In this document: piece by piece, positions 6,992 to 64,000 of the stretch
How the letters are laid out: each line of letters starts with the position of its first letter
Position numbering within the stretch: the stretch's first letter is position 1
Source of the DNA: Schmidtea polychroa
Taxonomy: Eukaryota
NCBI GenBank assembly: GCA_044892525.1
Contig: CM097885.1
Coordinates: forward strand, 28,026,001 to 28,090,000
DNA: 64,000 nucleotides
Direction: 5' to 3'
Translations under genes and position numbers: made by a program
The notes under the pieces: generated by a model
Database searches by the model: none
Seen by the model: only the letters and a program-made list of their open reading frames with translations
Told to the model about the DNA's origin: nothing

Positions 6992-7303
6992 GCAGTAGAA
7001 AAAGAGTTCAAAGAGTTAGATGCCGCTGTGCCTTTGACATACACGTAGTTACCAAAAGTGACAGTTCATTAGGCAAATGTGAAGATTACCGATTTTTAAA
7101 TTCCATCACTATCCACGACTGTTACAACGCCATTTAATACCAACATCATCAGTCAGAGTCAAAACCGACTGTAAAATTAATAACCCAAAAAATAAGGAAA
7201 AGTATTCAGTAAATAAAATATCAGGAAATAATTATTACATAATCAGTCAGAAAATTTGATATTTAAGCGTAAGTTCATCAGAAGATTTATAAAACAATTT
7301 CTA

Positions 7304-8053
7304 ATGGTCAGATATTCAGGTACTTCATTTCTAAGAACGAATTCAATTCTGAAATTCGATCTGAAACCCATCGAAATCTCGGATGAAATAATTGAGGATT
7401 TATTCGTTAGATTTCTATCCGATGTCAAGTCTTGTAAAACCAGCATGTCAGCGATTTTCTGGAGATTAGAGAAGATGTATTGGTATTATGTCGATTCAAA
7501 CAAATTGAAAGAAAAACAATCATCGCAACATTTTAAGAGATTTGTCATTGGCATTCGATACTATTTACAGGAAATTCTCCCACTCAACATTGACATTGTC
7601 AATGAATATAACAAATGGAATTATAATCGCAGATTTATACCTCGAGCTAAAGCAATTATTGTTGACGAAAATATGGAAAACGTTTTGCTTACGAAATGTC
7701 ACTATAATGACTATTATATTTTCCCCGGTGGGAAAGTAGAAGAAACCGATACGCATTTATTGGACACAGTAATCCGAGAAATCTACGAAGAAGTTGGAAT
7801 AGACCTTTCTAATGTTGTAGATGAAGATTTATATTTTGATCATGTTCAATACAGTTTACTCAGTAGATACTATGTGATTCGCAATTTCAGAAAAGACACA
7901 TTTTTACAGCCATTAGTGGACAATGAGATTCAAGTGATAAAATGGTTCCCAATAAAGGATATTCCCGATAATATGGAGCAATATAACATTTCATTAGAAA
8001 ATATCAAACTTGTTGTTAATCCTCTGAAATATATGTCAAAATATTTGAATTAA
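7304..8053 (+). CDS. Dcp2-like mRNA decapping Nudix hydrolase (short, intronless)
   Basis: Box A-like IIEDLFVRFL...IFWRLEKMYWYYVD, Nudix box FPGGKVEETDTHLLDTVIREIYEEVGID and NEIQVIKWF; first ATG at 7304 gives 249 aa. Confidence 0.85.
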   Translation: MVRYSGTSFLRTNSILKFDLKPIEISDEIIEDLFVRFLSDVKSCKTSMSAIFWRLEKMYWYYVDSNKLKEKQSSQHFKRFVIGIRYYLQEILPLNIDIVNEYNKWNYNRRFIPRAKAIIVDENMENVLLTKCHYNDYYIFPGGKVEETDTHLLDTVIREIYEEVGIDLSNVVDEDLYFDHVQYSLLSRYYVIRNFRKDTFLQPLVDNEIQVIKWFPIKDIPDNMEQYNISLENIKLVVNPLKYMSKYLN

Positions 8054-20555: not shown

Positions 20556-20701
20556 ATCTGTAAAAAAACTATCAGTAATTTAAATAATTAAAAAAACTTA
20601 ATAAAATAAAATAAAATTAAATGTGCATATTTCAGGCACTACAGTCATTATATAATTAAAATAAAATAAGGATATTTTTTTCAGTTGATCGCATTGCTAG
20701 A

Positions 20702-21047
20702 AGAAGAAACCGATACGCATTTATTGGACACAGTAATCCGAGAAATCTACGAAGAAGTTGGAATAGACCTTTCTAATGTTGTAGATGAAGATTTATATTT
20801 TGATCATGTTCAATACAGTTTACTCAGTAGATACTATGTGATTCGCAATTTCAGAAAAGACACATTTTTACAGCCATTAGTGGACAATGAGATTCAAGTG
20901 ATAAAATGGTTCCCAATAAAGGATATTCCCGATAATATGGAGCAATATAACATTTCATTAGAAAATATCAAACTTGTTGTTAATCCTCTGAAATATATGT
21001 CAAAATACTTGAATTAAATATTTCTATATGGAATTTATGCCAACCAA
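20702..21047 (+). pseudogene. Near-identical partial duplicate of the Dcp2-like gene 3' half
   Basis: Matches 7738-8083 (offset 12964); only one synonymous change was noticed; lacks Box A and the start of the Nudix box. Confidence 0.9.
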
Positions 21048-24608: not shown

Positions 24609-25350
24609 CCCTTAGTAGCCTGATTTACGAAAGTGATTTTTTTAATATTATTGTGTTTGCTTGAGGGTCTAAATGAAGGGAAAAATAGCTAAAAAAATCA
24701 CAATATTTATTTTACATATTTATTTAGAAAAAAAACAGGTATCAATTTTGATACTTCAGGCTTTAAGGCCATAAAGAAATCAGAAATACCTATGCATGAA
24801 ATAATGCTAAACATTGATTGTTTTTATTATCGCATAACGACACTTTACACTTTTTACAGAACCAGGAGGTAAGTTTCCTACAGTTATTAAATTTACACTT
24901 ATTTCTAGAATCCATAAAATTTTTTCATGACCAATACAATCGCAACGCACGTCAGTAGAGGGTAATACTTGTACACCTGTCCGGGGTCTTTTAGAAGGTA
25001 CTGTAGTGTCTTGTCGACTGTTGGTACTGGGTCTTCCCCTTTTATTTTTTGAGTGACTTTGATATCTACATAAAGTATCGGCAAGCTCAGTTCTAAAATC
25101 TGCTAACTTCATAATGTTCTTCTGAAGTTTTCCTTTCACTGTGTTTACCTTTTTGTATAGTACCCAAGCATTGATGACAGTCATGTTTAACAAATGGTAG
25201 AAGAGCCTCGTTGTCCACTTTCTCGACTTTATGCGGATGTGATATCGACCAATGAAGCTATCCATCAAATCAACACCGCCCATGTGTGTATTATATTCTT
25301 TTATGACCCGAGGACATCATACTTGAACATTGGCCTTTAATTTCTTTTCT
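24609..25350 (-). mobile_element. piggyBac 3' remnant
   Basis: TTAA|CCCTT terminus at 24605-24613; CPRVIKEYNTHMGGVDLMD...KWTTRLFYHLL...INAWVLY...FRTELA. Confidence 0.85.
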
Positions 25351-25463
25351 TTGCCACTTAACCAAAACCGTCTTCGTCTTCCGGGTTCGTCCAAATCTTC
25401 TCCATTACAACAAGAAGATTTAATATTAAATTTAATGTCTGGTAATGAAGGATTAGGACCCAT
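25317..25463 (-). CDS. Small element ORF, truncated and running into the piggyBac frame
   Basis: MGPNPSLPDIKFNIKSSCCNGEDLDEPGRRRRFW...; ATG lies 3 nt after the pX-like stop. Confidence 0.35.
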   Translation of the reverse strand: MGPNPSLPDIKFNIKSSCCNGEDLDEPGRRRRFWLSGKEKKLKANVQV

Positions 25464-25466
25464 TTT

Positions 25467-25960
25467 TTATGATCGTCTTCCTATTATTCCACCTAATAAT
25501 GATATTGCTAAAGGTATCAATGTACCGATAAATCCCCCTTGTTGTTTATTATAATTTTTCTCATTTGTTGACGAATTTTATTATTTACTAATGATGGCAA
25601 AGGTTTCCTATGTTTACTCAATAATTGATTTTTGGATTTACTGATTTTTATCTTGCCTTTGACTACTTTAAGTATAATATCGAGTAAATCATCGACAACA
25701 TAATTTGGAAATGATTGCAAAACACTGTTTCTTTTCATACTTGGTGCCTTTAACAATGTATTAAAAAACGGGAAACTCCGATGATTTTTAACAACTTTTA
25801 CTTTCTTAGTGGTTTTACTTTTAGGTTTAGGTTTAGGATTTTTCGAAATAAGATTCATTGCAGGAAACCTTTCTGTAATAAGTTCTTTAGATGGAGCATA
25901 ACTAGTTGTTGGTGGAACTTTTGATTGTTTTTTATTTGATATCCTTGTTTTTGAAAACAT
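25467..25960 (-). pseudogene. Basic pX/core-like virion protein with GG|F motif (frameshifted)
   Basis: Lys-rich ORF 25517-25960; one frameshift near 25550 continues it as NKQQGGFIGTLIPLAISLLGGIIGRRS*, an adenain-type cleavage motif plus hydrophobic helix. Confidence 0.6.
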
Positions 25961-26013
25961 GTTTTATATGTTTTCAACTTTATTTTGAACTTTTTTTATA
26001 AACCGTGGCACCT

Positions 26014-26613
26014 TTATGGGTTGAAAATATCTGTTTTTACTCGTAAGTCATGAGGACATTGTTGTGTGAAATCAAGAAATATATACCCATGCGGTATTTT
26101 CGTAGCATTTTGAAATGCATTGATAAGAAAATTACGATTATTAGGGTATGCTTGTCGTCCAAGACAATCAATGACAGTTGCATCTCTAGGAATCTTGAAA
26201 ATAACTAAATATTGTACATTTAAATTACGTGTTCGATGTGCACTACCTTGATGAAATAGATTTTGTGTTATGAAAATAACTGTTACACCAACATCTCTGC
26301 TGATTTTTGTGAATAAATTATTAAAATCTTTTTCTTTATTGGCTTCTTGATACAAATCATCGATAATGATGACATCATCTTTCTTCAAACGACTTGACCA
26401 GTTTTTATCAAATCCCTTTACTATTTTCATGTTTTTCAACTGACAGAAACTTGATTGCGTCAATCCATATTCTTCGTCGGCGCCCCTATGCCAATAAATA
26501 TTGTTGAATTTTGTTTTGAACAAATTTGATTTTAGTAATTTACAAACAAATAATGTTTTTCCGCTACCCCTTGGACCAACGATTTGGTATACTGCATCAT
26601 TTCGTAATTCCAT
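26014..26613 (-). CDS. A32/FtsK-like DNA packaging ATPase of Polinton type
   Basis: Walker A GPRGSGKT, Walker B IIIDDL, then LFTKISR, IFITQNLF, RTRNLNVQY, FKIPRD and GYIFLD. Confidence 0.9.
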   Translation of the reverse strand: MELRNDAVYQIVGPRGSGKTLFVCKLLKSNLFKTKFNNIYWHRGADEEYGLTQSSFCQLKNMKIVKGFDKNWSSRLKKDDVIIIDDLYQEANKEKDFNNLFTKISRDVGVTVIFITQNLFHQGSAHRTRNLNVQYLVIFKIPRDATVIDCLGRQAYPNNRNFLINAFQNATKIPHGYIFLDFTQQCPHDLRVKTDIFNP

Positions 26614-26677
26614 TTTTTAAATTTAAACTATATAATTATTGTTTATATTGATAATTTAAATGAAATCCGTTTTAAAA

Positions 26678-26811
<134 letters not shown>

Positions 26812-26823
26812 TGTTTCATTAAA

Positions 26824-27288
26824 ATGCTTTCAACTATAAATTACAGGGCAAAAGCTGATGTATCAAAAATGGTATTTCTAATGGGGTAACCACAAAAACC
26901 TATCAATAGAAGTAAAAAATATCCAATAATATATTTCAAAACTGGTAAATGTAGAATTATGGGGTGTAAGGAAATAATCAAAGCTAGTGAATATAATGTT
27001 TATGATTTAGAAATACAATCGATAACCGTAACTTCCGATATGGGATTTACTTGTTACTTAAATAAATTGGCTAAATTAATACCATGCTTTAACCAACCAG
27101 AATTATGTCCAGCTTTGAGATATATAAAATATAACCCTGTGTGTGTAAATATATTCGCTAGCGGTAAAATAGTAAATCTTGGACTAAAAAATATTGATTA
27201 CGAATGTATAGTTGATAATATCATATCTGAAATTAAATCAATAATTGAAGGAAAAGAATTTTTAGATTTTTTATTATCACTTAATTAA
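26824..27288 (+). pseudogene. Compact TATA-binding-protein-like gene of the element (one in-frame stop)
   Basis: ATG 26824 in frame with ORF 26959; TAA at 26887-26889; TBP repeat motifs IYFKTGKCRIMGCK and QPELCPALRY...VNIFASGKIVNLG. Confidence 0.8.
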
Positions 27289-27535
27289 TTATTTATCATT
27301 GCAAATTCAGTGCAATTGAAATGCATAATTCTGATTGGTCGAAATCTAATTGGCTGATGATTATTTATAACAAAATGTTTTGGGTTTAGTTATCATTTTT
27401 AAATCACGTACAATATTCAAAGTTCAGCTATAGCACCGATTAAAAAGAACATGAACATTATGGTAAATTTTAATATTAATTGTATTTATCATATTATTAT
27501 TTACAGATTAATATCATGCAATAATACTGGAAAGA

Positions 27536-27811
27536 TTGTATTTTTATTACCCGCAAATGTATGATATTCTCAAAGATCGAGATGTTGCAATAATCCCAGA
27601 TTTAATTTACAATGAAACCAGAATCTGGATTTTCAATATTATCAATACATTTCTCTGGGATGTGAAGATTGGAAGAACAATGAAGGAAGTGGAAGCATAC
27701 CCTTGCATTTTGGGATGTAGCTGTTGCAATTTCCGCTACCAGAGATATGTCGAATGGTATTTCGTAAAGACACTTCGTAATTATCATTTTTGTCAAATTT
27801 TATCCAAATAA
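27536..27811 (+). pseudogene. Unknown small element gene (Cys cluster), probably spliced and disrupted
   Basis: Upstream ATTGG boxes (27334, 27349), TATA-like 27364, candidate GT-AG intron 27463-27506; ORF contains CILGCSCC. Confidence 0.35.
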
Positions 27812-27868
27812 ATTTTTAACTATTTTTAGTTTTGTCTTTTTTAGTAAATAGTAATAGAAATATAAATA

Positions 27869-27984
<116 letters not shown>

Positions 27985-28157
27985 TAGTTTGAAAATAATA
28001 AAAACATTAATAATAATATGACACAAATAACATATGACAATGCAACATCAATGGATTTTGAATGCAATTAAAACAAAGACATACTGCAATTTGATTGGTT
28101 TATAAACAATAGTCATAGGTATAAAAACCCTGTATCATTACAATTCAATCATAAGTC

Positions 28158-28518
28158 ATGATGACCAAGAAAATATCAAGCACTGAAAAACCAAAGGTTG
28201 TTGTTGCTGAATTTGTACAACTGTTCAAATGTTCCACAACTATAAAATGCATTTTTTAAAGAAGAAATCAATATGAAATTGGTGTCACCGATCAAGCTAA
28301 TTCTGACTAAATTTCAATTCTTATCCGGCACACTTTCAATGATAGATGTTAAATCTATTGATGATGTTTTCAAACGGTTGAATACGAATCTATCATGTAA
28401 TCAACATGCACGGTTCAACAACCGATATGCAAGATATTATGATTCCTTTGATGAAATCGGCTTCAAAGAAAACGAAAATTGGTATATAACCATTTCAATC
28501 CAAGGATATAAAGTTTAA
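28158..28518 (+). pseudogene. Unknown small element gene, frameshifted
   Basis: ATTGG 28094, TATAAAAA 28120, ATG 28158, ORF 28273-28518 and downstream AATAAA. Confidence 0.3.
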
Positions 28519-28945
28519 AATAATGATGTGTATTTCTAAAATTATGTTTGCTAGACTTTCACACCTATTTTAATAAATGTTGATATATTTAATGTATTTA
28601 TTAATTGTATTTACTCGTATTTGTTTTTTCACCTATTTAACAATGAAAATGCACCATCAGTTCAAAACAAAGACATTTTTAAACAAATATACATTATAGT
28701 TTTAAAGTTTTATAGTTAGGAAGTTGAAGAAACCAATGATAGTCAAGAAACTGATGACCCCCAAGAAATTGATAAACCTATATTAATGAAGCTAAAGATT
28801 TGGAAAATATTACAAATGATTGTATAGATCATGTCATCGAAAATGTTATGAAATGTGGAGATGACGATTGCGAATGTGGTAATTAATAAATTTTAGTTAA
28901 TTATTTCTTGTAAATTTATTTTAAAAATAAAACAAAGTAAGTACA

Positions 28946-29441
28946 TTAATTTTTATTCAAAAATCGACAAATGATATACAAGATAGCAACACCTGTTGGA
29001 AGTTTAATATAGTTTTTAAACTTTATTTTGTGCTCGTCGATTTCTTTGGCATTTCGGGCGAGTTGATTCGATACTCCCCATCCGCCATTGGCATAGATCC
29101 AATGAATATTATTAAAATATAGATTATAAAATAAATGACTTCTTGAGACCACTGGTAGTAATGTTCTGAGTCCCATAAAATTTTTTGATGATAATTTTCA
29201 TATAAGTGAATCCTACAATTATTCGGGTCCACTTCATTTCTTCGTTGAATAGGCAATTGAAGATTCGAATTAAATAAAACTTCTTTGTTTCAAGGCATTC
29301 CATATCCATCATGTTCTGGTAGTCGATATGGTTGCCTTTAATAATTCGTTCAGTCCGATTGATTAGGAAACTGAGGCTTTCCGTAATGTTTTTGTTGACG
29401 ATCTATTTTAGTAAGTTGTCAATGAAATTAGGTTTTGACAT
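28946..29441 (-). pseudogene. Bcl-2-family-like gene of the element
   Basis: BH1-like LFNEEMKWTRIIVGFTY, BH2-like HWIYANGGW, hydrophobic tail GVAILYIICRFLNKN; one TAG (29403-29405) and a 1-nt frameshift near 29130; upstream TATA (29471-29477) and CCAAT (29506-29510). Confidence 0.65.
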
Positions 29442-29782
29442 TTTTACAGTAATTTAAAATATAAAGTTTTATTTATACTACAGAATTGTGTGCCATATGA
29501 TTCTGATTGGTTGATAGACTATATGAGTTTTGTTACAATATTTCTATTGATACCCTTGTGATCAGTACCCTTGCGAGCAGTACCCTTAAGGGGACAGAAT
29601 ATCTTGTCGGATAAACTCAGAGTATCACCGTGCGCGTAATAGTAGTTATATGGTTTATATCGATGGTACAATAATTTGGGAATTCAAATTTAAAATTTTT
29701 TAAATATTTGACCTCAGATTGACCTTAAAATTTGACCTAAAAACAGCCCCTCCCCGGGGGTATGATGTAATATGTTTTCGTT

Positions 29783-29836
29783 ACGTCATCGATGACGCCA
29801 TATGTCTTTGTTCCCGGCTCCACATGTTACCCTACT
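29783..29836 (-). repeat. Polinton-type terminal inverted repeat (right end)
   Basis: Reverse complement AGTAGGGTAACATGTGGAGCCGGGAACAAAGACATATGGCGTCATCGATGACG, nearly the same as both ends of 3471-3723. Confidence 0.85.
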
Positions 29837-53974: not shown

Positions 53975-54539
53975 CTTTAAAGCGTGATTTAAAAAATATC
54001 AGGAGTAGAAAAGATTTGAGAAAATTAAATCGAAAGAAAAAGTTGTATGCGAAATTATGATATTTCATAGTGAATTGATGGAAGTTTCGATTATATACAA
54101 TATGATTTAGTTATTTGTTATATAGAAACTCACTATTTCAATTTATCACATTGCTTGGAGGTGTCTCTGTTATTTATTGAACCAAGGGGAGCTGTATACT
54201 AAAAATCAATTTTGTCAAATTTACACCCAACAAAAAATAAGAAAAACAATAAAATTATTACAATGGTATACACGTTTTTTTGTCGTTGATCTTGCATTCG
54301 TTTTACTTGATTGGGTCTATTTTCTAAGAAAATTATGTCGAACCGTAAAATGTGAAAATTTGTGAAATCGGTTAATTTTTATATTAATAAATCTTCAATA
54401 TATGTCAACAAGTAATTTTTGATACTTTTTTGTCAAGTATCAGAGTAGTGAATAGTAAGGACTCCAACTCACTTTCAAGGTCATGGAATATCAAGATCAA
54501 ATATAGACCAATCGAATCATTTATTTTTTAAATTAACAT

Positions 54540-54900
54540 TTTATTTAATTACTTCTTTTTAATTTTATTAATTAATTATTTTATGATGTTATATTTTAAT
54601 TACTTACTTTAGTTAATTTTTAATTTATTACATTTAATTAATTTATTAGTTTATTAATATTTTATTTTAATTACTTACGCTTTTTAATTATTATTATTAT
54701 TATTATTATTTTTAATTTTATTTAATTACTTCTATTTTTTTTTCTCTTTAATTTTATTAGTTAATTATTTTATGATGTTATACTTTAATTACTTATTTTA
54801 GTTAATTTTTAATTTATTACATTTAATTAATTAATTTGTTTATTAATACTTTATTTTAATTGCCAACGTTATTTAATTATTATTTATTTATTTTTTAATT
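54540..54900. repeat. AT-rich tandem duplication (two units of about 180 bp) downstream of pPolB
   Basis: TTTTATGATGTTATA...TAGTTAATTTTTAATTTATTACATTTAATTAATT occurs twice. Confidence 0.7.
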
Positions 54901-55215
54901 TTACATTATATTCTAACAAGAGCGTAAATTATAACAATAATATTTCAATTTGAATAAAATTTTAATTAGTAATTATTCAATTTGAATAAAATTTTAATTG
55001 GTAATTATCATAAAATAAAGCTGTGTTAATTTAAATAAAATGGGCATTAATTTTTCAAAACAAAGCAAAGTTTTTCATGATAAATAATAATTCTTACTTA
55101 AAACTAATTATCTAAATTAATTGGACAAATGAATTATTAAATGATAAAACATATTTTAATTAACGAAGTCAAATAATTCACAATATATATTTTATTATTC
55201 ACATAAATTTAATTG

Positions 55216-58108
55216 TTAAAGTTCTTGTTTCGATTTGCATTCATTTGTAGACGGAGCAGTTGCGATATGCATTTGACGAATCTTATAGTGACCGTAGGCA
55301 TAGCTTTCATTAGAATTGAACCAATACCTTTTTTCATCCAAACATTGGAGAGCTCGTTTTTCAGTAATGAAAGTATACAACTGATGATTAACACTTCCTA
55401 TTCTCTTTTGTTGGATGCTCACTGTTCCACCATCAGTATACACTTTTTTATAGGCTTCATGGGTGATATTAGAATTTGTAAGACTTATTCCTTTGGCTTT
55501 TAGAGTGTTTTTATCTCCTTGGAGTGAGTAGCACTTGGGTCGAAGAAACACCCATTCTTTATATTGATTTCCTTTATTCTCATCCTTGAATTTCCCGATT
55601 ACCGAACAAATTTTATCTGAGAACAATGGATCAGTCACCGGATAATTTGAAGTATCTAGGAGCCCATCGGCAATCATTTTTGGATACAGTTGTAAGCGTA
55701 AATCAACATTTTTACACTCTAAAAAGAAGGAATCTGTGTCACCGGCTACGATATTAATTTGACAATTGAATTCTTCTCTATAACTCTGTAGTTCTTTATA
55801 TTGAAACTGGTACATGCGAAGTTTAGATAAATCAAGTACGGTTTGTCCAATATACATTGGTCTATCTAAACACACCATTTCCTTATCAAGTATAACAGCA
55901 ATGAGATCATCCGCAATCTTGATGCTACGACGAAACATAGGATTACTACAATAAGTTATCAATCTTTTGCTTTTGCTGCATAATCTCAAATTTATACGTT
56001 TCTTAAGGTTTTCCACGGTTTTACCATATAAACTGTTGTTCTTTAACTTATAATAATCTCGCTGAAATGAATCTGTACTAGCTGCTCTCATTTGAGTATT
56101 GTAATCAATATAGCGTTTGAAAATAGCTACTTGCTTGAATTCTACAGCACGATTAACTTTTGTGACTTTTGCGCCGTAACTCAACCACTCTGTCAAAACT
56201 CTACCATTAACTACATAGTTTTTCTTAGGCTCATGAGTTAACAACAGCTTTTCAACTTTACTACCAGGTGGATAACAAAGCTCAGGAGCTATAGGTAAAT
56301 CATCTAGCTTATCTTGTATACTATCAGGAATGACGATGTCAACCTCTAGAACATATCCACGATCTCCATCAAACTCATCCCCATTTGCACATCTTTCAAC
56401 AATACCATTCATTTCAGTATGATCATTTATCCATCTAAATTCACCAATAGGAAGTTTTTGCGACAGCGCCCATCCATATAAATTATTAACATCTAGGTAT
56501 GACATTTGTGTTGATTCATCAGCTTCAACATGATGTTTGTTGATAAATGTCATTCCACCACGAATACCAGCTTCAAATAAACGGTAAAGCTCTGGATCTT
56601 GAATAAGTTCTACCGGTTCAGGTAACTGTTTAATAGCTGATGCCCAACTTAATCCGGGTATGGAAACAAACGATAAAGCCTCAAGTCCATCTTCGTCAAA
56701 TGTTTTTTCTCTGAAAGCTTCAAAAACATCGGCCAACACAAAAACATCCAACTTGAGATATACTAGCATGTAATCTAGCAGTGTCTCACAGTTATATTGT
56801 CGCCAGATTTGATTTGCATGTATATAATCTTCTTGACTAACTCCCTCCCAAATCGATGGTAATTCTGTTATTGACTGTAAAACATCCATTGACGTAGCAA
56901 TATCATAAGGAAATATGCCTTTACCAGTTATTAGATGCGAATTGAAAATCTTTGAAGTAAGTGGAAGACGTGGCAAGTTTTTTGATAAATTTGCCAAGCT
57001 GCTATTTAAAAATTGTAAAGAATCAATGAATCTAATTCTTCTGCCTTTCGATGTCGCTGTAAGTGTGAGAAACTTTTCTGTTGATTGAGGAATAACAATT
57101 AAATTCCAATCTGGGAATTTTCCAATTGCATATTTTAATATATGATGAATGTCATATCCACGAAGATTATGAAATACAACAGGTAAAGACGGATTGATTC
57201 TTCTAGCCAAATTACAATCTTGACACGCTGCTCCGAGATATTGACCAGTAAAATGATCATGATCTCGAACGGGTATATTGATAATCTTTTTACAAAGGTA
57301 GCAATGAGTTTGAGTCGTGAATTCTTCCTGCTCTTCCCAAGTGAGTTCCATCATTTCCTTTGATCCATTAATTTTATACCACGGATAAACTATGTCTGTA
57401 GCTATATCATCCAATGCTTGTATGAACTGAATGATACAGTTTTTCCCAACAAATGTTTCATTTCGGATCGGACAACCTTGATGGAGAAGCACAAATTCAG
57501 ATGCAATCGGCTCATGTTTTTGGAAGTGTTTGTCATCTAGAGGTAATATCGATTCAAAGTCCGCGTAGACAACAAACTGCTGTTTTATAGTTTTACTCCA
57601 ATCTTTAAATTCGATATATTTATTCTCTGGCATTGAGTATAGAGTCGTACGCTCCACATTCTTCCTACAAAGACCTATATGTCTTTCAAAAGCAGGACGT
57701 TTTTGAAACCCATGAAGACACGTATGACACCAATGTGATTGGATTCTGACTCCTTCTACTCTATCTCTGTAATTCAGCAGTCGATCGAGATTAGTTACAG
57801 CCAAAAAATGATAATTTAATTCTAAATTTAGTTAATATTTTTAATGATTAAAGGAAATATTACCTTCTTCAATCAATAGGAGATATATCTGAGATCCCGT
57901 CGAAGTACTTCTATATACCAAGTCAATGAACGGATTCTTGAAAATATCATTAGTTTTTTGTTTAATTGGATCTTTATTATATTTGAGAACATTGATCGCT
58001 AGATTTGGATTAATTGCTTCAAATTGGCAAATGTTAACCAACTTCATCGGAAACCATTCAAATTTCCATTTTAAGTCTTAAAAACAAAATTCAATGATTT
58101 ATGACATT

Positions 58109-58193
<85 letters not shown>

Positions 58194-59265
58194 CCACTTA
58201 AGTTATATTTTGTTGTTCTTTCTCTATTCCGACGTATATCATCATAACGTAACACAGCTAGTATGCTATATAAAAAACAGAATTGATCATTGTTTTGAAC
58301 ATTAACTAAAGCCTGACAGTTTTTCAGGTAATTTGGCGTTTTAATGTAACTTGAACCTAAGTAATCTCTTGATTTATATATATATAATAATGTAAATAAT
58401 CTTACCAGATACATGTATTATGTCTGATAATTTAGTTAAAATCATAGTAACTTCTAATATTTTATGAATTCTCCACCCACTACTTTGTTGAGTGTATTTC
58501 TCCAACTTTTCTTTTAATTTTTCAATTCCATCATTAATAAATGAAGATGACATTGTAATTGCTTTATTCGACAAACACCATTTTTTAATTTCACCATCCT
58601 CTTTGATAAACTCTGCACAAAGTCCAAATTGGATTTTTACTGTCCCCATTCGTTGAATATGATCTTCTATTTCTTTGATGAGACAATCTGGAACAACAAT
58701 GTCAGGAGAATTAATTGCAGATACATCGCTTGTCAATTCAACACGAGAACCGTTTAAGTCAGACTCCCGACGTGGACACAATTGTATGTTAGAGTCTCCA
58801 TTTCCGTAAAATATTGACTTTCGTTTTGTGGTGCCAGAGTTTTGTCTAACTATATTTATAATTAATATTAAACAACTTAAATAACATAACTTGTAACATA
58901 TTCTTTAATCTCCTTAGGATCGTATGATGTATTCATTTTCGATTGTACTATAAAAAATTAATAATTGTTAATAGTAGAAAGAGTATTACTTTTAGTGATC
59001 ATCCTGCTCTTCGTTTCTTCGAATCTTCTAAGATGGTGTCCGTGTTGTCGTACAAACATTAACCACCTACCTGGTGTTATAATGAGACATTCCGGACATA
59101 TGTAACCCGATAAGGTAGAGTCATTTATCTTGAAATATGATGATGTAACTGATTTACAGTTCTCCACATCTTCATGACTTTCGGCAATACAAAATTTATA
59201 TAAACTGCATCCGTTCACTAAAAAATAATCATTAATATTAGATAGAGAATAAAAATTTATTCACT
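55216..59265 (-). CDS. Protein-primed DNA polymerase B (Polinton/Maverick type) with endonuclease VII-like insert; about 1236 aa after splicing
   Basis: YADFES, FHNLRGYD, KGIFPY, YLKLDV, YLDVNNLYG, KLKNNSLYGKT, GDTDS, GKFKDE, KAKGI; CxxC..DHDH..G..CxxCN; N-terminal SSGW and GSSY..NNDQFCF motifs. Predicted introns 59218-59264, 58948-58989, 58850-58890, 58357-58405, 58077-58194, 57822-57863. Confidence 0.92.
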
Positions 59266-60426
59266 TATATAAGTTAAATTAAAAGTTTAAATGACAAACA
59301 TTTGAAAAGTTACTGCTTATATATTACACATGATTAAATTCTGACCAATCAAAATCAAGGAAGGGGTAGGAAAAATAAATATATTCTGACCAATCAAAAT
59401 CAAGGAAGGGGTAGGAAAAATAAATGCATTACATTGCAGTATTTTAAAACTTAAATTTTAAAACACATTTTGACGCTAAAGTTGACTTATTTAACATTTT
59501 CATAATAATTTAATAAAAATAATGTGTTGAACTCACAAAGTAATATCATTTTTTTTCATCAAATTGCAAAACAGTAATAACGTTTTCATAAAATTGTAAC
59601 AAAGTAATAACATATTTCAGATAAATTTTCAACAGTTGTAAAATATTTATCAAATTGTAACTAAAATAATAAAAATATTGCAACAAAGTAATAAAATAAT
59701 GATGTTAATTGGGACAAATCAATACATTATTTCGAAGACGGACAACAAATTAAAAAAGAATATTGTAATAAATTGTGAAGTCTTTCAGTAAATTACAACA
59801 AAGTAATAACATATTTCGGAAATATTTCACCAGATGTAAAATATTTAAGCAAATTGTTATAAGATTATAAAAATATTGCAACAAAGTAATAAAATAATAC
59901 AACATTTTAAACTCTAGATCAATCCATTTTATAGAAAATTAAATTTTATCTCTATAATATATGAATAAATATACAAGGAAATTACGTTAACGTATAATAA
60001 AACATGTGTGTATTACACACAAAACAAGATACATAATTTCTAATCAATCCATTTTATAGAAAATTAAATTTTATCTATATATTATATGAATAAAATCCTA
60101 AGAAAATTACGTTAACCGCGCGAAAAATACAAATTTATCGTAAAAACATGTGTGTATTACACACAACATACGAGACATAATTTTTAATCAAGCTATTTTA
60201 TAGAAAATTAAATTTTATCTATATATTAAATGAATAAAAATCCAAGAAAATTACGTTAACCGCGCGAAAAAATACAAATTTATTGTAAAAACATGTGTGC
60301 ATTACACACAAAGCACCAAACTGAAATTGTAATTGCGCCGTGTTGTAGAGAATTAAATTCTGCCTATACATGGTTACACTTAAATCTCGATCAGACCTGT
60401 GAAAAGAGACATAAAAGATAAAAAAC
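58397..60426. repeat. Left arm of a large inverted duplication (extent limited by window end)
   Basis: Reverse complement of 61972-64000; mirrored coordinates sum to 122397/122398. Confidence 0.95.
59317..59425 (-). promoter_or_regulatory. Pol II-type promoter of pPolB
   Basis: TATATAA at 59317-59323 (minus); CCAAT at 59345 and 59390 inside a 45-bp tandem duplication; mirrored at about 62972-63080. Confidence 0.6.
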
Positions 60427-60720
60427 AGTAGAGTAGTATGATGTGGGCCCGCCCGGCCAGGAGCCCGCTCGGCCACATATACCCCCTCCCCCCGTGTGTA
60501 AAATAATGTTAATAATAATATTTATATATCAGTAGATAGATCTCGCACTGGGCCTTAAAATGAGCTATAGATCAATAAAATCTGTTGGTGGGAACATTAA
60601 GTTTTGAGCAAACGAAAACCAGGAGCCCGCCAGACCACTTAATAATATTTTTTGAAAATAATAATGATTTATGAGTCATCGTATGAGTCATCGAATGAGT
60701 CATCGTTCTAAAAATACATG

Positions 60721-60777
<57 letters not shown>

Positions 60778-60981
60778 TTCTTGGGAGTTGTAATAATAAT
60801 TCTTTGAAAATATCTTAGTCATTATTAATAATACTAATAATACCCTAGCGAGTTGTTGATTGTGAGTAGTACCCTTGTGTGCAGTACCCATGTGACTTGT
60901 TGAGTGTGAGCAGTACCTTTGTGAGCAATACCCATAGGGGGACAGAATATCTTGTCGGATAAACTCGGAGTATATAATAAT

Positions 60982-61041
<60 letters not shown>

Positions 61042-61971
61042 CAACGATTTAAACAAATTAAATTAATATGTAATCGATAATTAAAACAAAGATTATTAGT
61101 TCTAAAATTATTAGGCATCATTCTAAAAATATGACGTAATCATTCTAAAAATATGTGGCATCGTTCTAAAAATATGTGGCATCGTTCTAAAAATATGAGT
61201 CATCGTTCTAAAAATATTAGGCATCGTTCTAAAAATATGATGTAATCATTCTAAAAATATTAGGCATCATTCTAAAAATAATAGACATCGTTCTAAAATT
61301 ATGATGTAATCGTTCTAAAAATAATAGACATCGTTCTAAAAATATTTGGCATCATTCTAAAATATTAGAAAACATTCTAAAAATGTGATGAGTCATTGTC
61401 TTTGTTCTAAAAATGTGATGAGTCATCGTATGATAAAAATCTATATCTCATTAGAAAGTTCTTGCACAGAGCTTTAAAATAAGCTATCGATCAATATAAT
61501 ATGTTGGCGGGAACAATAATTTTTGGGATGAAAAAAAGTAGGTCCCCGCTGGATCACTTAATAATATTTTGAAAAATAATAATAATTTAACGTTGAAAAG
61601 ATGGTGGTCATCAATTGTTAATAACATTAAAACTATTAAAGATATATATGATACCTATAGCTCATTCGAAAGGTCTTGGACTGAGCTTTAAGATGAGGTA
61701 TCGGTTAATAAAATTTGTTGGCGGGAACATTACTTTTGGGAAGAAAAAAAGTAGGTCCCCGCTGGATCACTTAATTTAAAAAAAATTACGTAATAGTTCT
61801 AAAAATATTAGGCATCGTTCTAAAAATATTAGGCATTGATTACGTAATAGTTCTAAAAATATTAGGCATCGTTCTAAAAAAAAATAAAATTTTTTCCCGG
61901 GGGGGGGGGGAGGGGGTATATGTGATCTGGAGGGGACATGGCCGGGGGAGCCCACATCCTACTACTCTACT
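60427..61971. mobile_element. 1545-bp non-coding cassette with Polinton-type AGTAG termini at the palindrome centre
   Basis: Begins AGTAGAGTAGTA, ends TACTACTCTACT; ~65-bp imperfect GC-rich TIRs; shares a 36-bp block (35/36) with 29590-29625. Confidence 0.75.
61096..61420. repeat. About 15 tandem copies of a ~21-bp unit CATC(G/A)TTCTAAAAATATnnnn
   Basis: Seen directly; further copies at about 60701 and 61796-61880. Confidence 0.9.
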
Positions 61972-64000
61972 GTTTTTTATCTTTTATGTTTCTTTTCACA
62001 GGTCTGATCGAGATTTAAGTGTAACCATGTATAGGCAGAATTTAATTCTCTACAACACGGCGCAATTACAATTTCAGTTTGGTGCTTTGTGTGTAATGCA
62101 CACATGTTTTTACAATAAATTTGTATTTTTTCGCGCGGTTACGTAATTTTCTTGGATTTTTATTCATTTAATATATAGATAAAATTTAATTTTCTATAAA
62201 ATAGCTTGATTAAAAATTATGTCTCGTATGTTGTGTGTAATACACACATGTTTTTACGATAAATTTGTATTTTTCGCGCGGTTAACGTAATTTTCTTAGG
62301 ATTTTATTCATATAATATATAGATAAAATTTAATTTTCTATAAAATGGATTGATTAGAAATTATGTATCTTGTTTTGTGTGTAATACACACATGTTTTAT
62401 TATACGTTAACGTAATTTCCTTGTATATTTATTCATATATTATAGAGATAAAATTTAATTTTCTATAAAATGGATTGATCTAGAGTTTAAAATGTTGTAT
62501 TATTTTATTACTTTGTTGCAATATTTTTATAATCTTATAACAATTTGCTTAAATATTTTACATCTGGTGAAATATTTCCGAAATATGTTATTACTTTGTT
62601 GTAATTTACTGAAAGACTTCACAATTTATTACAATATTCTTTTTTAATTTGTTGTCCGTCTTCGAAATAATGTATTGATTTGTCCCAATTAACATCATTA
62701 TTTTATTACTTTGTTGCAATATTTTTATTATTTTAGTTACAATTTGATAAATATTTTACAACTGTTGAAAATTTATCTGAAATATGTTATTACTTTGTTA
62801 CAATTTTATGAAAACGTTATTACTGTTTTGCAATTTGATGAAAAAAAATGATATTACTTTGTGAGTTCAACACATTATTTTTATTAAATTATTATGAAAA
62901 TGTTAAATAAGTCAACTTTAGCGTCAAAATGTGTTTTAAAATTTAAGTTTTAAAATACTGCAATGTAATGCATTTATTTTTCCTACCCCTTCCTTGATTT
63001 TGATTGGTCAGAATATATTTATTTTTCCTACCCCTTCCTTGATTTTGATTGGTCAGAATTTAATCATGTGTAATATATAAGCAGTAACTTTTCAAATGTT
63101 TGTCATTTAAACTTTTAATTTAACTTATATAAGTGAATAAATTTTTATTCTCTATCTAATATTAATGATTATTTTTTAGTGAACGGATGCAGTTTATATA
63201 AATTTTGTATTGCCGAAAGTCATGAAGATGTGGAGAACTGTAAATCAGTTACATCATCATATTTCAAGATAAATGACTCTACCTTATCGGGTTACATATG
63301 TCCGGAATGTCTCATTATAACACCAGGTAGGTGGTTAATGTTTGTACGACAACACGGACACCATCTTAGAAGATTCGAAGAAACGAAGAGCAGGATGATC
63401 ACTAAAAGTAATACTCTTTCTACTATTAACAATTATTAATTTTTTATAGTACAATCGAAAATGAATACATCATACGATCCTAAGGAGATTAAAGAATATG
63501 TTACAAGTTATGTTATTTAAGTTGTTTAATATTAATTATAAATATAGTTAGACAAAACTCTGGCACCACAAAACGAAAGTCAATATTTTACGGAAATGGA
63601 GACTCTAACATACAATTGTGTCCACGTCGGGAGTCTGACTTAAACGGTTCTCGTGTTGAATTGACAAGCGATGTATCTGCAATTAATTCTCCTGACATTG
63701 TTGTTCCAGATTGTCTCATCAAAGAAATAGAAGATCATATTCAACGAATGGGGACAGTAAAAATCCAATTTGGACTTTGTGCAGAGTTTATCAAAGAGGA
63801 TGGTGAAATTAAAAAATGGTGTTTGTCGAATAAAGCAATTACAATGTCATCTTCATTTATTAATGATGGAATTGAAAAATTAAAAGAAAAGTTGGAGAAA
63901 TACACTCAACAAAGTAGTGGGTGGAGAATTCATAAAATATTAGAAGTTACTATGATTTTAACTAAATTATCAGACATAATACATGTATCTGGTAAGATTA
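61972..64000. repeat. Right arm of the large inverted duplication (runs off the window)
   Basis: Mirror of 58397-60426; ORFs 58958-59218 and 63179-63439 encode identical peptides. Confidence 0.95.
63132..64000 (+). CDS. Second copy of the pPolB gene, 5' exons (truncated by window end)
   Basis: Predicted introns 63133-63179, 63408-63449 and 63507-63547 join MNGCSLYKFC...ITK-IQSK...YVT-IRQNSG...DIIHVSG. Confidence 0.85.

Follow-up and report, generated by a model that had tools for sequence, protein, structure and literature searches.

A minimal TATA-binding protein of Polintons in Schmidtea polychroa and a candidate late promoter box

Beta- and gammaherpesviruses encode mimics of the TATA-binding protein (TBP), such as ORF24 of KSHV (Kaposi's sarcoma-associated herpesvirus), BcRF1 of Epstein-Barr virus (EBV) and UL87 of human cytomegalovirus (HCMV). 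In the portions of PMC12529657 drawn on here, KSHV ORF24 is described as placing a polar TBP face on the variant late TATT box of virion genes, which are transcribed by the host's Pol II (RNA polymerase II); its TFIIB-binding glutamates are lost and five partners are needed. A much smaller protein, termed mini-TBP, is encoded in a stretch of 64,000 nucleotides from Schmidtea polychroa (contig CM097885.1, positions 28,026,001 to 28,090,000), referred to here as the window. Its gene belongs to Polinton (Maverick) elements whose packaging and putative capsid genes share a TATA-like box, YATAAACR. The mini-TBP is proposed, at a probability of roughly 0.65, to be an early-made, one-protein switch for late genes that acts through this box, host TFIIB and Pol II.

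The herpesvirus mimics resemble the mini-TBP in their TBP fold, polar DNA face and variant box. The late boxes themselves differ (TATT as opposed to YATAAACR) and the likeness is one of analogy only. ORF24 is a large protein which binds Pol II directly, acts within a six-protein complex, has four phenylalanines and lacks the TFIIB glutamates. In contrast, the mini-TBP is a bare core of 154 aa with no Pol II-binding extension and no evident partner, and its glutamates are kept. It most likely works like the herpesvirus mimics but is not a member of that system.

Two-lobed TBPs are also encoded by the Nucleocytoviricota, including B263R of African swine fever virus (ASFV), the proteins of phycodnaviruses and mimiviruses and the TBP-like protein of poxviruses, and this group gives the best matches of the mini-TBP in a library of viral models. 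According to the parts of PMC7221094 considered here, two glutamates of the C-lobe are the signature of TFIIB binding, and basic residues of helix H2 in the N-lobe form the site for TFIIA, TAF1, Brf and BTAF1. In viral TBPs the TFIIB site is there said to be usually diverged, often with a viral TFIIB alongside. The Polinton protein differs in that its glutamates are of the host type. A search of 92 loci, taken from the elements or their surroundings, recovered its positive control at E 1e-115 and no TFIIB homologue.

The best structural matches of the mini-TBP are found in the cellular TBP family (PF00352), which comprises eukaryotic TBP and TRF and archaeal TBP. Both have a two-lobed saddle, a loop-5 phenylalanine in each lobe and the stirrup YEPELFP with its two TFIIB glutamates. 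The mini-TBP is distinguished by its length of about 150 aa, by the near loss of helices H1 and H2 from the N-lobe and by a residue other than Phe at the F99 position. Its hydrophobic floor is replaced by invariant Asn, Arg, Met and Ser, and it forms a clade apart from the host paralogues.

The elements share with Polintons/Mavericks (adintoviruses, Polintoviricetes) the pPolB gene, an rve integrase with a chromodomain, an A32-type ATPase, an adenain-type protease, terminal inverted repeats (TIRs) of about 1.1 kb and a 6-bp target duplication; a double-jelly-roll capsid may be a further common feature. A TBP gene that may belong to this family has appeared in print as the figure label ‘TBP’ (PMC8502044, Fig. 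5), with neither discussion nor promoter in the portions of that paper covered. The main text of PMC7221094 does not mention Polintons, Mavericks or transposons, that of a preplasmiviricot survey (10.1101/2024.03.18.585575) does not mention TATA, TBP or transcription, and PMC12220804 has no relevant mention of these. In the literature outside Repbase and the subscription journals, a viral TBP with a dedicated late box has apparently not been described as a system in Polintons.

In the window, the gene is present as a broken copy:

26824 to 27288, plus strand: mini-TBP gene of 154 codons, interrupted by TAA at codon 22 (26887 to 26889)

A preliminary description, made from the letters of the window, had reported about 154 codons with both TBP repeat motifs, one internal TAA, no N-terminal extension and divergence from the gene of a packaging ATPase. 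Each of these points holds. The motifs FKTGKCRIMG, PELCPAL and IFASGKIVNLG stand in the translation. The gene of the A32-type ATPase runs on the opposite strand from a start at 26613, at a distance of 210 nt. Membership of the TBP family is borne out by Pfam, as PF00352 matches residues 62-125 of the open reading frame (ORF) with the stop read as X, at E 1.8e-9 and with 37.8 bits where the cut-off is 22.9 bits. An open-frame copy reaches 55.6 bits, and in both copies it is the C-lobe alone that is matched. The first lobe, for which Pfam gave no match, is seen by profile comparison with canonical eukaryotic TBP (hhalign probability 98.7, E 4e-16). By sequence, the window ORF matches solved TBPs in 35 distinct sequences up to E 0.1, the best at 8e-9.

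The internal stop is private to the window copy, occurring in one of the 30 top-scoring loci. These were the best-scoring of 150 loci scored among 3897 candidates, and the intactness of the family is therefore overstated. Read-through of a recoded stop was considered and rejected, the TAA being absent from 29/29 other loci. Between the window gene and the 29 other copies DNA identity is 94.2-96.1%; the other copies have a mean identity of 98.5% to one another. Its private changes, 12 non-synonymous and three synonymous, match the ratio of available sites (363 vs 99), which indicates neutral decay. On sequence grounds, the window mini-TBP is a dead, neutrally decaying copy of a conserved element gene. 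Contigs of three presumed-RNA runs and of one run of another or mixed kind were compared: the TBP gene is covered in one of the presumed-RNA runs and not in the other two, and no conclusion on expression is drawn.

The wider family is large. Exact matches to a 30-mer of the TBP gene number 678 across the 781-Mb genome, compared with none for the reversed control, and a neighbouring, more variable 30-mer has 278. The gene order in other copies is pPolB, post-protease ORF, protease, a putative major capsid protein (MCP) of 407 aa, an ORF of 120 aa (p120), a putative minor capsid protein of 355 aa, integrase with chromodomain, basic protein and ATPase, followed on the other strand by TBP and small ORFs. 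Matches to PF03175 (pPolB), PF00665 (rve integrase) and PF04665 (A32-type ATPase) were obtained in other copies; of these three genes the window copy has the ATPase and an integrase stub only. The adenain-type protease was recognized in the related element L085 (PF00770, E 1e-7), with a similar ORF in a sister family of the genome. The double-jelly-roll capsid is less certain, as the putative MCP has no Pfam or PDB sequence match. It shows weak similarity to a PF21738 protein (hhalign probability 41% over 331 columns) and a language-model atlas look-alike score of 0.98, and the capsid labels used here are putative. TIR matches of 0.5-1.1 kb were present in four of six stretch pairs compared, and a 6-bp target-site duplication at the one insertion checked.

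Four Polinton families in the genome carry a TBP gene beside the ATPase, with 58-62% TBP identity for those compared with the window's family. The ratio of non-synonymous to synonymous substitution rates (dN/dS) is 0.15-0.31 in 6/6 pairs among the four families, at dS values of 0.9-2.1 that are near saturation. By this measure the mini-TBP is under purifying selection between families; within the family, dN/dS values of 0.46-0.81 rest on two to seven changes, too few to be informative. Outside the genome, 16 homologous proteins with 36-87% identity were found by word search, and a profile search returned 533 proteins at E up to 1e-10, ordinary TBPs included. From 91 pattern matches, 51 metagenome loci were derived, with a core Polinton gene in 23 and some element gene in 36; for the 31 contigs of at least 2 kb these numbers are 22 and 29. 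L137, an element found through its capsid gene instead of its TBP, also carries TBP; it is the only one of the three elements so found that was long enough. No relative was found in IMG/VR for the mini-TBP (0/43 pattern matches), P0164 (0/10) or the MCP (0/159). The element-encoded nature of the TBP, as put forward in the preliminary description, is thus supported by the family copies, the four families and the metagenome Polintons, and its linkage to ATPase, integrase, capsid-module and pPolB genes is seen in other copies and other genomes.

The fold was modelled with AlphaFold from an alignment of 17 sequences, in which a naturally open-frame copy took first place. The model, with a predicted local distance difference test (pLDDT) score of 92.7, is a two-lobed saddle with a complete C-lobe. 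The N-lobe keeps its strands, has no H1 and retains a 4-residue stub of H2, in agreement with the shortened first repeat noted earlier; the basic cluster of H2 is deleted in the alignment of short forms. The top Foldseek matches in the PDB are all TBPs (E 1.3e-8 and template modelling (TM) score 0.67 to archaeal TBP). Among viral models, giant-virus TBPs come first, with ASFV B263R-like proteins and herpesvirus BcRF1/UL87 lower, the match to BcRF1 being weak (E 7e-3).

Residues were tabulated for 49 short and 29 longer forms against canonical TBP, in yeast TBP numbering. One of the eight rows labelled canonical in this table is an element-type protein, P0089, which accounts for stray R, M, S and N counts in those rows; it is absent from the tree described below. 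The intercalating phenylalanines F116, F190 and F207 are each present in 49/49 short forms, and the loop-5 residues of the two lobes are F38 and F111 of the mini-TBP (mapped to yeast F116 and F207; 49/49). The position of F99 is Phe in 0/49, being Pro in 47/49 by MAFFT and Gln by hhalign, with no Phe in either register. Conservation of the intercalating phenylalanines, a question raised by the preliminary description, therefore extends to three of the four. The TFIIB-binding glutamates E186 and E188 (E91 and E93 of the mini-TBP) are kept in 48/49 each, N69, which forms a symmetric Asn pair with N159, in 48/49 and P191 in 47/49. On the DNA face, the short forms carry V71N (49/49), V122R (48/49), T124M (49/49), N159S (49/49), V161T/S (48/49) and L205N (49/49); V122R, T124M and L205N are present in all 29 longer forms. 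Judged by these residues, the DNA face is changed to polar yet is invariant within the family.

A tree of 52 rows was built from 18 short forms, 21 longer relatives, seven canonical, archaeal or unnamed TBPs and six host loci, three of the latter being single exons; rows were hand-picked from profile matches and nine were dropped because of running time or wrong labels. Short and long forms together are split from the host and canonical TBPs, including all six host TBP-family loci, at 100/100. The longer forms enclose the short ones, which make up a single group (98/87). A recent retrocopy of host TBP at a single locus, which the preliminary description had named as the outcome that would speak against it, is contradicted by this split and by the 678 30-mer matches. 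Its captured basal factor stands as an element-encoded protein of old capture, but the donor is not to be found in the host's TBP-family genes. On the evidence of the tree, the capture is old and those loci are not its source. No named giant-virus or herpesvirus TBP is among its rows. A group of TBP-like proteins of 160-190 aa (P0109-P0161) has both N-lobe helices and shares the Arg, Met and Asn changes of the DNA face with the short forms; it is likely the ancestral form.

At least six loci of the host (L102-L107) belong to the TBP family, and some of these are divergent and have hardly any introns. TFIIB-domain matches number 21 (L112-L121), 13 of them in single frames of 301-310 aa clustered on two contigs. 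This is an unusual expansion of basal factors.

The box was first spotted by eye in lined-up upstream regions, and was scored in the 70 nt upstream of the ATG after de-duplication at 80%. ATAAAC precedes the ATPase in 15/15 cases, compared with a shuffled mean of 1.2 and maximum of 4. It also precedes the basic protein (10/10), the putative MCP (8/10), the post-protease ORF (11/12) and the putative minor capsid protein (6/8). Over the box-bearing gene classes, shuffled means are 0.9-1.2 with maxima of 4-5, and the reverse strand gives 0 in each. The site lies mostly at -31 to -47 from the ATG. In an unbiased census of 6-mers (-60 to -20), ATAAAC ranks first, being present at 44/47 packaging, capsid-module and neighbouring starts; the profile is Y-ATAAAC-R and T precedes the site in 89%. 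Six element stretches (66 kb) contain 56 YATAAACR sites on the late strand and four on the other, while the host background, 50 kb of the window outside elements, has nine and eight per strand. A reading of the box as a poly(A) signal was rejected, as AATAAA occurs in 2/47 windows, A never precedes the box, and the box stands before ATPases with no upstream gene on the same strand.

A different type of promoter is found at the TBP genes. ATAAAC precedes 1/36 of them, and TATAWAW is present upstream of 20/36 (shuffled 8.5, maximum 15). An initiator-like TCA motif lies near the ATG in 30/36 TBP genes versus 12/47 of the packaging, capsid-module and neighbouring starts. No ATAAAC was found before the N-terminal frame of pPolB (0/3). 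The preliminary description had suggested that the mini-TBP could drive the element's TATA promoters. A shared box at candidate target genes does exist before the packaging and capsid genes; it is the variant YATAAACR, not an ordinary TATA box. As these genes share one TATA-like box, the mini-TBP likely switches them on.

The following sequence of events is proposed. Host TBP/TFIID would transcribe the mini-TBP gene early from its host-type TATA/initiator promoter. Through its rewired DNA face the mini-TBP would then bind the YATAAACR box that precedes the packaging genes and the putative capsid genes, and its kept stirrup glutamates would recruit host TFIIB and thereby Pol II. Once bound to the box, it would turn on these genes late. 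With the N-lobe helices gone, the protein would lack the contact surface of TFIIA, TAF1, Brf1 and BTAF1/Mot1, the ATPase that evicts TBP, and the complex would therefore stand outside normal host control. We infer from sequence the role of the box as a core promoter read by the mini-TBP, the binding of TFIIB and the early and late timing alike.

Several observations count against this proposal. ATAAAC within 70 nt is less frequent at p120 (2/9), the protease (2/4) and the integrase (3/11), with further sites at -70 to -100. L137, which bears a TBP, has the box before three genes and none in the 70 nt before the ATPase ATG. Eight Polinton-like or Polinton-like virus (PLV) contigs with no detectable TBP served as controls, and here ATAAAC is present at -60 to -20 before 1/7 ATPases and 0/6 presumed capsid genes, four of these six labelled by size and position. 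The controls are few, mostly distant and incomplete, and the co-occurrence of TBP gene and box is therefore suggestive only. One of them, L144, has ATAAAC 36 nt before its ATPase, and no TBP was found in its 12.3 kb. It is the closest relative among the controls (ATPase 37%, capsid 29% identity), its TBP may be absent or beyond the contig, and its box is followed by T, a base seen in 0/44 TBP-element sites. As the box was sought in relatives of one clade only, box and TBP share ancestry. Several boxes fall within the coding sequence of the gene before them, and their conservation may owe something to codon constraint. The evidence for the functional steps is correlative throughout, and the MCP label depends on a weak profile similarity and a language-model look-alike.

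The alternative that survives best, though an unlikely one, is that a host factor (TBP, a paralogue or a forkhead protein) reads the box, and that the mini-TBP acts elsewhere on DNA, for instance at early promoters or on the terminal repeats. A single base separates TATAAAC from the TATA consensus, the several TBP-family loci of the host could supply a reader, and L144, with no TBP detected, carries ATAAAC before its ATPase. ATAAACA also fits the forkhead consensus, RYAAAYA, a further point against the mini-TBP as reader. However, canonical TATA variants almost never replace the box: TATAAAA, TATAAAT and TATAAAG occur in 0, 1 and 0 of 47 windows, yet are used before the TBP gene in 4, 5 and 2 of 36. 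GTAAAC, the variant common among forkhead sites, appears in 2/47 windows, and the box is fixed in strand and position and mostly preceded by T.

It is less probable still that the mini-TBP is a decoy, which binds TFIIB or occupies host promoters, damps host transcription and drives no element genes. The protein retains both TFIIB glutamates and has lost one of its intercalating Phe residues, an Asn and the helices of the N-lobe, as would suit such a role. A pure TFIIB sponge, however, would need no invariant, family-specific DNA face, and a decoy leaves the YATAAACR box unexplained. Competition of the mini-TBP with host TBP, suggested in the preliminary description, found no positive support in this analysis.

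There is little to recommend a variant in which the mini-TBP recruits the Pol III factor Brf1/Brf2 or a divergent host TFIIB paralogue instead of canonical TFIIB. The same glutamates serve TFIIB and Brf1/Brf2 in the account given in parts of PMC7221094, and the 13 TFIIB-like frames exist besides canonical TFIIB and Brf-like loci. In that account Brf1 also uses the N-lobe basic patch, which is deleted in the mini-TBP, and the targets here are protein-coding genes in AT-rich DNA. Lastly, a recent host TBP retrocopy or neutral passenger, for which the stop and the neutral private changes of the window copy would speak, is refuted by the 678 exact matches, purifying selection in four families, homologues in metagenome Polintons and the 100/100 split from the six host loci.

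The insertion that carries the window copy is, by comparison with other copies, a truncated Polinton/Maverick remnant of 4.5 kb (about 25343-29836) with several broken genes. Its parts and its left neighbour are as follows:

24807 to 25316, minus strand: piggyBac-type transposase fragment (PF13843), outside the Polinton and abutting the truncation
25343 to 25405, minus strand: first 21 codons of a retroviral-type integrase, at the left break point of the copy
25470 to 25960, minus strand: gene of a Lys-rich, basic protein, putatively of the virion, with a hydrophobic stretch at the C-terminus
26014 to 26613, minus strand: A32/FtsK-type packaging ATPase, 199 aa here vs 212 aa elsewhere
26640 to 26647, minus strand: TATAAACA, a candidate box of a late promoter; the ATPase ATG lies 34 nt downstream
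26682 to 26807, plus strand: TA microsatellite of 126 nt, in the place of the short TATATA run that precedes the TBP start in most other copies
27503 to 27808, plus strand: remnant of a variable element ORF of 100-120 aa with no assigned function
28161 to 28533, plus strand: conserved element ORF of 139 aa, often next to the TBP gene, here a frameshifted remnant
28809 to 28883, plus strand: remnant of an acidic 82-aa element ORF
29526 to 29836, no strand assigned: decayed right TIR, ending near 29836

The gene of the basic protein is split across two frames and its upstream box has decayed. The TA microsatellite probably arose by expansion of the TBP gene's host-type TATA box. Of 30 copies, three (L001, L007, L023) show a long microsatellite in place of the TA run before the TBP start, and such expansion is possibly a common route of promoter decay. 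The 139-aa neighbour (window 28161-28533; L042 649-1065) is kept beside TBP in many metagenome elements at 24-40% identity. It had no family match, a PHROGs search gave nothing, and its single-sequence fold (pLDDT 36.8) is unusable; it is a candidate partner or DNA-binding protein. Element ORFs of 122 and 82 aa likewise obtained no assignment.

A pPolB gene elsewhere in the window (55216-57831) was rejected as part of the same insertion, since it has 58% protein identity to the pPolB of the TBP family and lies 28 kb away. It falls in a large palindrome (window 54444-64000 and L049 1-3901), whose two arms of about 5.8 kb are inverted copies with 98-100% identity, and each arm carries such a pPolB of a different family (58%). 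The arms meet at a terminal-repeat stretch (60257-62141) that is 91-93% identical to the TIR of the TBP family, and the palindrome has the look of a replication product, either fold-back or head-to-head. Inverted duplications are also present in two of six neighbourhoods (L034/L035, L040/L041), one of them folded back inside the putative capsid gene. The window further contains an intronless Dcp2-like NUDIX gene (7232-8053) with a partial duplicate (20670-21017), 100% identical and 13 kb downstream.

Other features were seen in related elements. Just before the integrase ATG and after an ATAAAC box, a short, conserved frame with a Met-Gly start and an end near a Cys-Cys pair occurs in L037, L055, L057, L063, L086, L122 and L128. 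The Met-Gly start is taken to be a myristoylation motif, and the frame resembles a lipidated small virion peptide or an integrase leader. Further ORFs in or beside the elements encode a ubiquitin-conjugating enzyme (L056 225-719), a dual-specificity phosphatase (L051 4008-4316), a RING finger (L130 1137-2102) and a leucine-rich-repeat protein (L078 1918-3327). In several families (L122, L128, L037) the pPolB gene changes frame at comparable positions, and in the same regions the protease frame starts after an acceptor-like sequence; introns in Polinton genes are therefore suggested.

The findings bear on the control of Polinton capsid genes and on the question of a true productive cycle in animal Polintons. 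A dedicated TBP with a matching box provides a direct handle on both, as the box predicts transcription starts and late genes. The mini-TBP is also a natural minimal TBP which would separate TFIIB recruitment from the regulatory surface of the N-lobe, and with YATAAACR it forms a candidate orthogonal TBP-promoter pair. The broader proposal is an autonomous early-to-late programme, the smallest viral late-transcription system known, immune to TFIIA, TAF1 and BTAF1/Mot1 and possibly switching host genes with the box; the odds on it are placed at about even. If the proposed switch is true, viral late transcription would have a third, independent route, next to the six-protein complex of the herpesviruses and the own-polymerase systems of the giant viruses. 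The hundreds of copies in the genome could then switch on host genes that bear the box.
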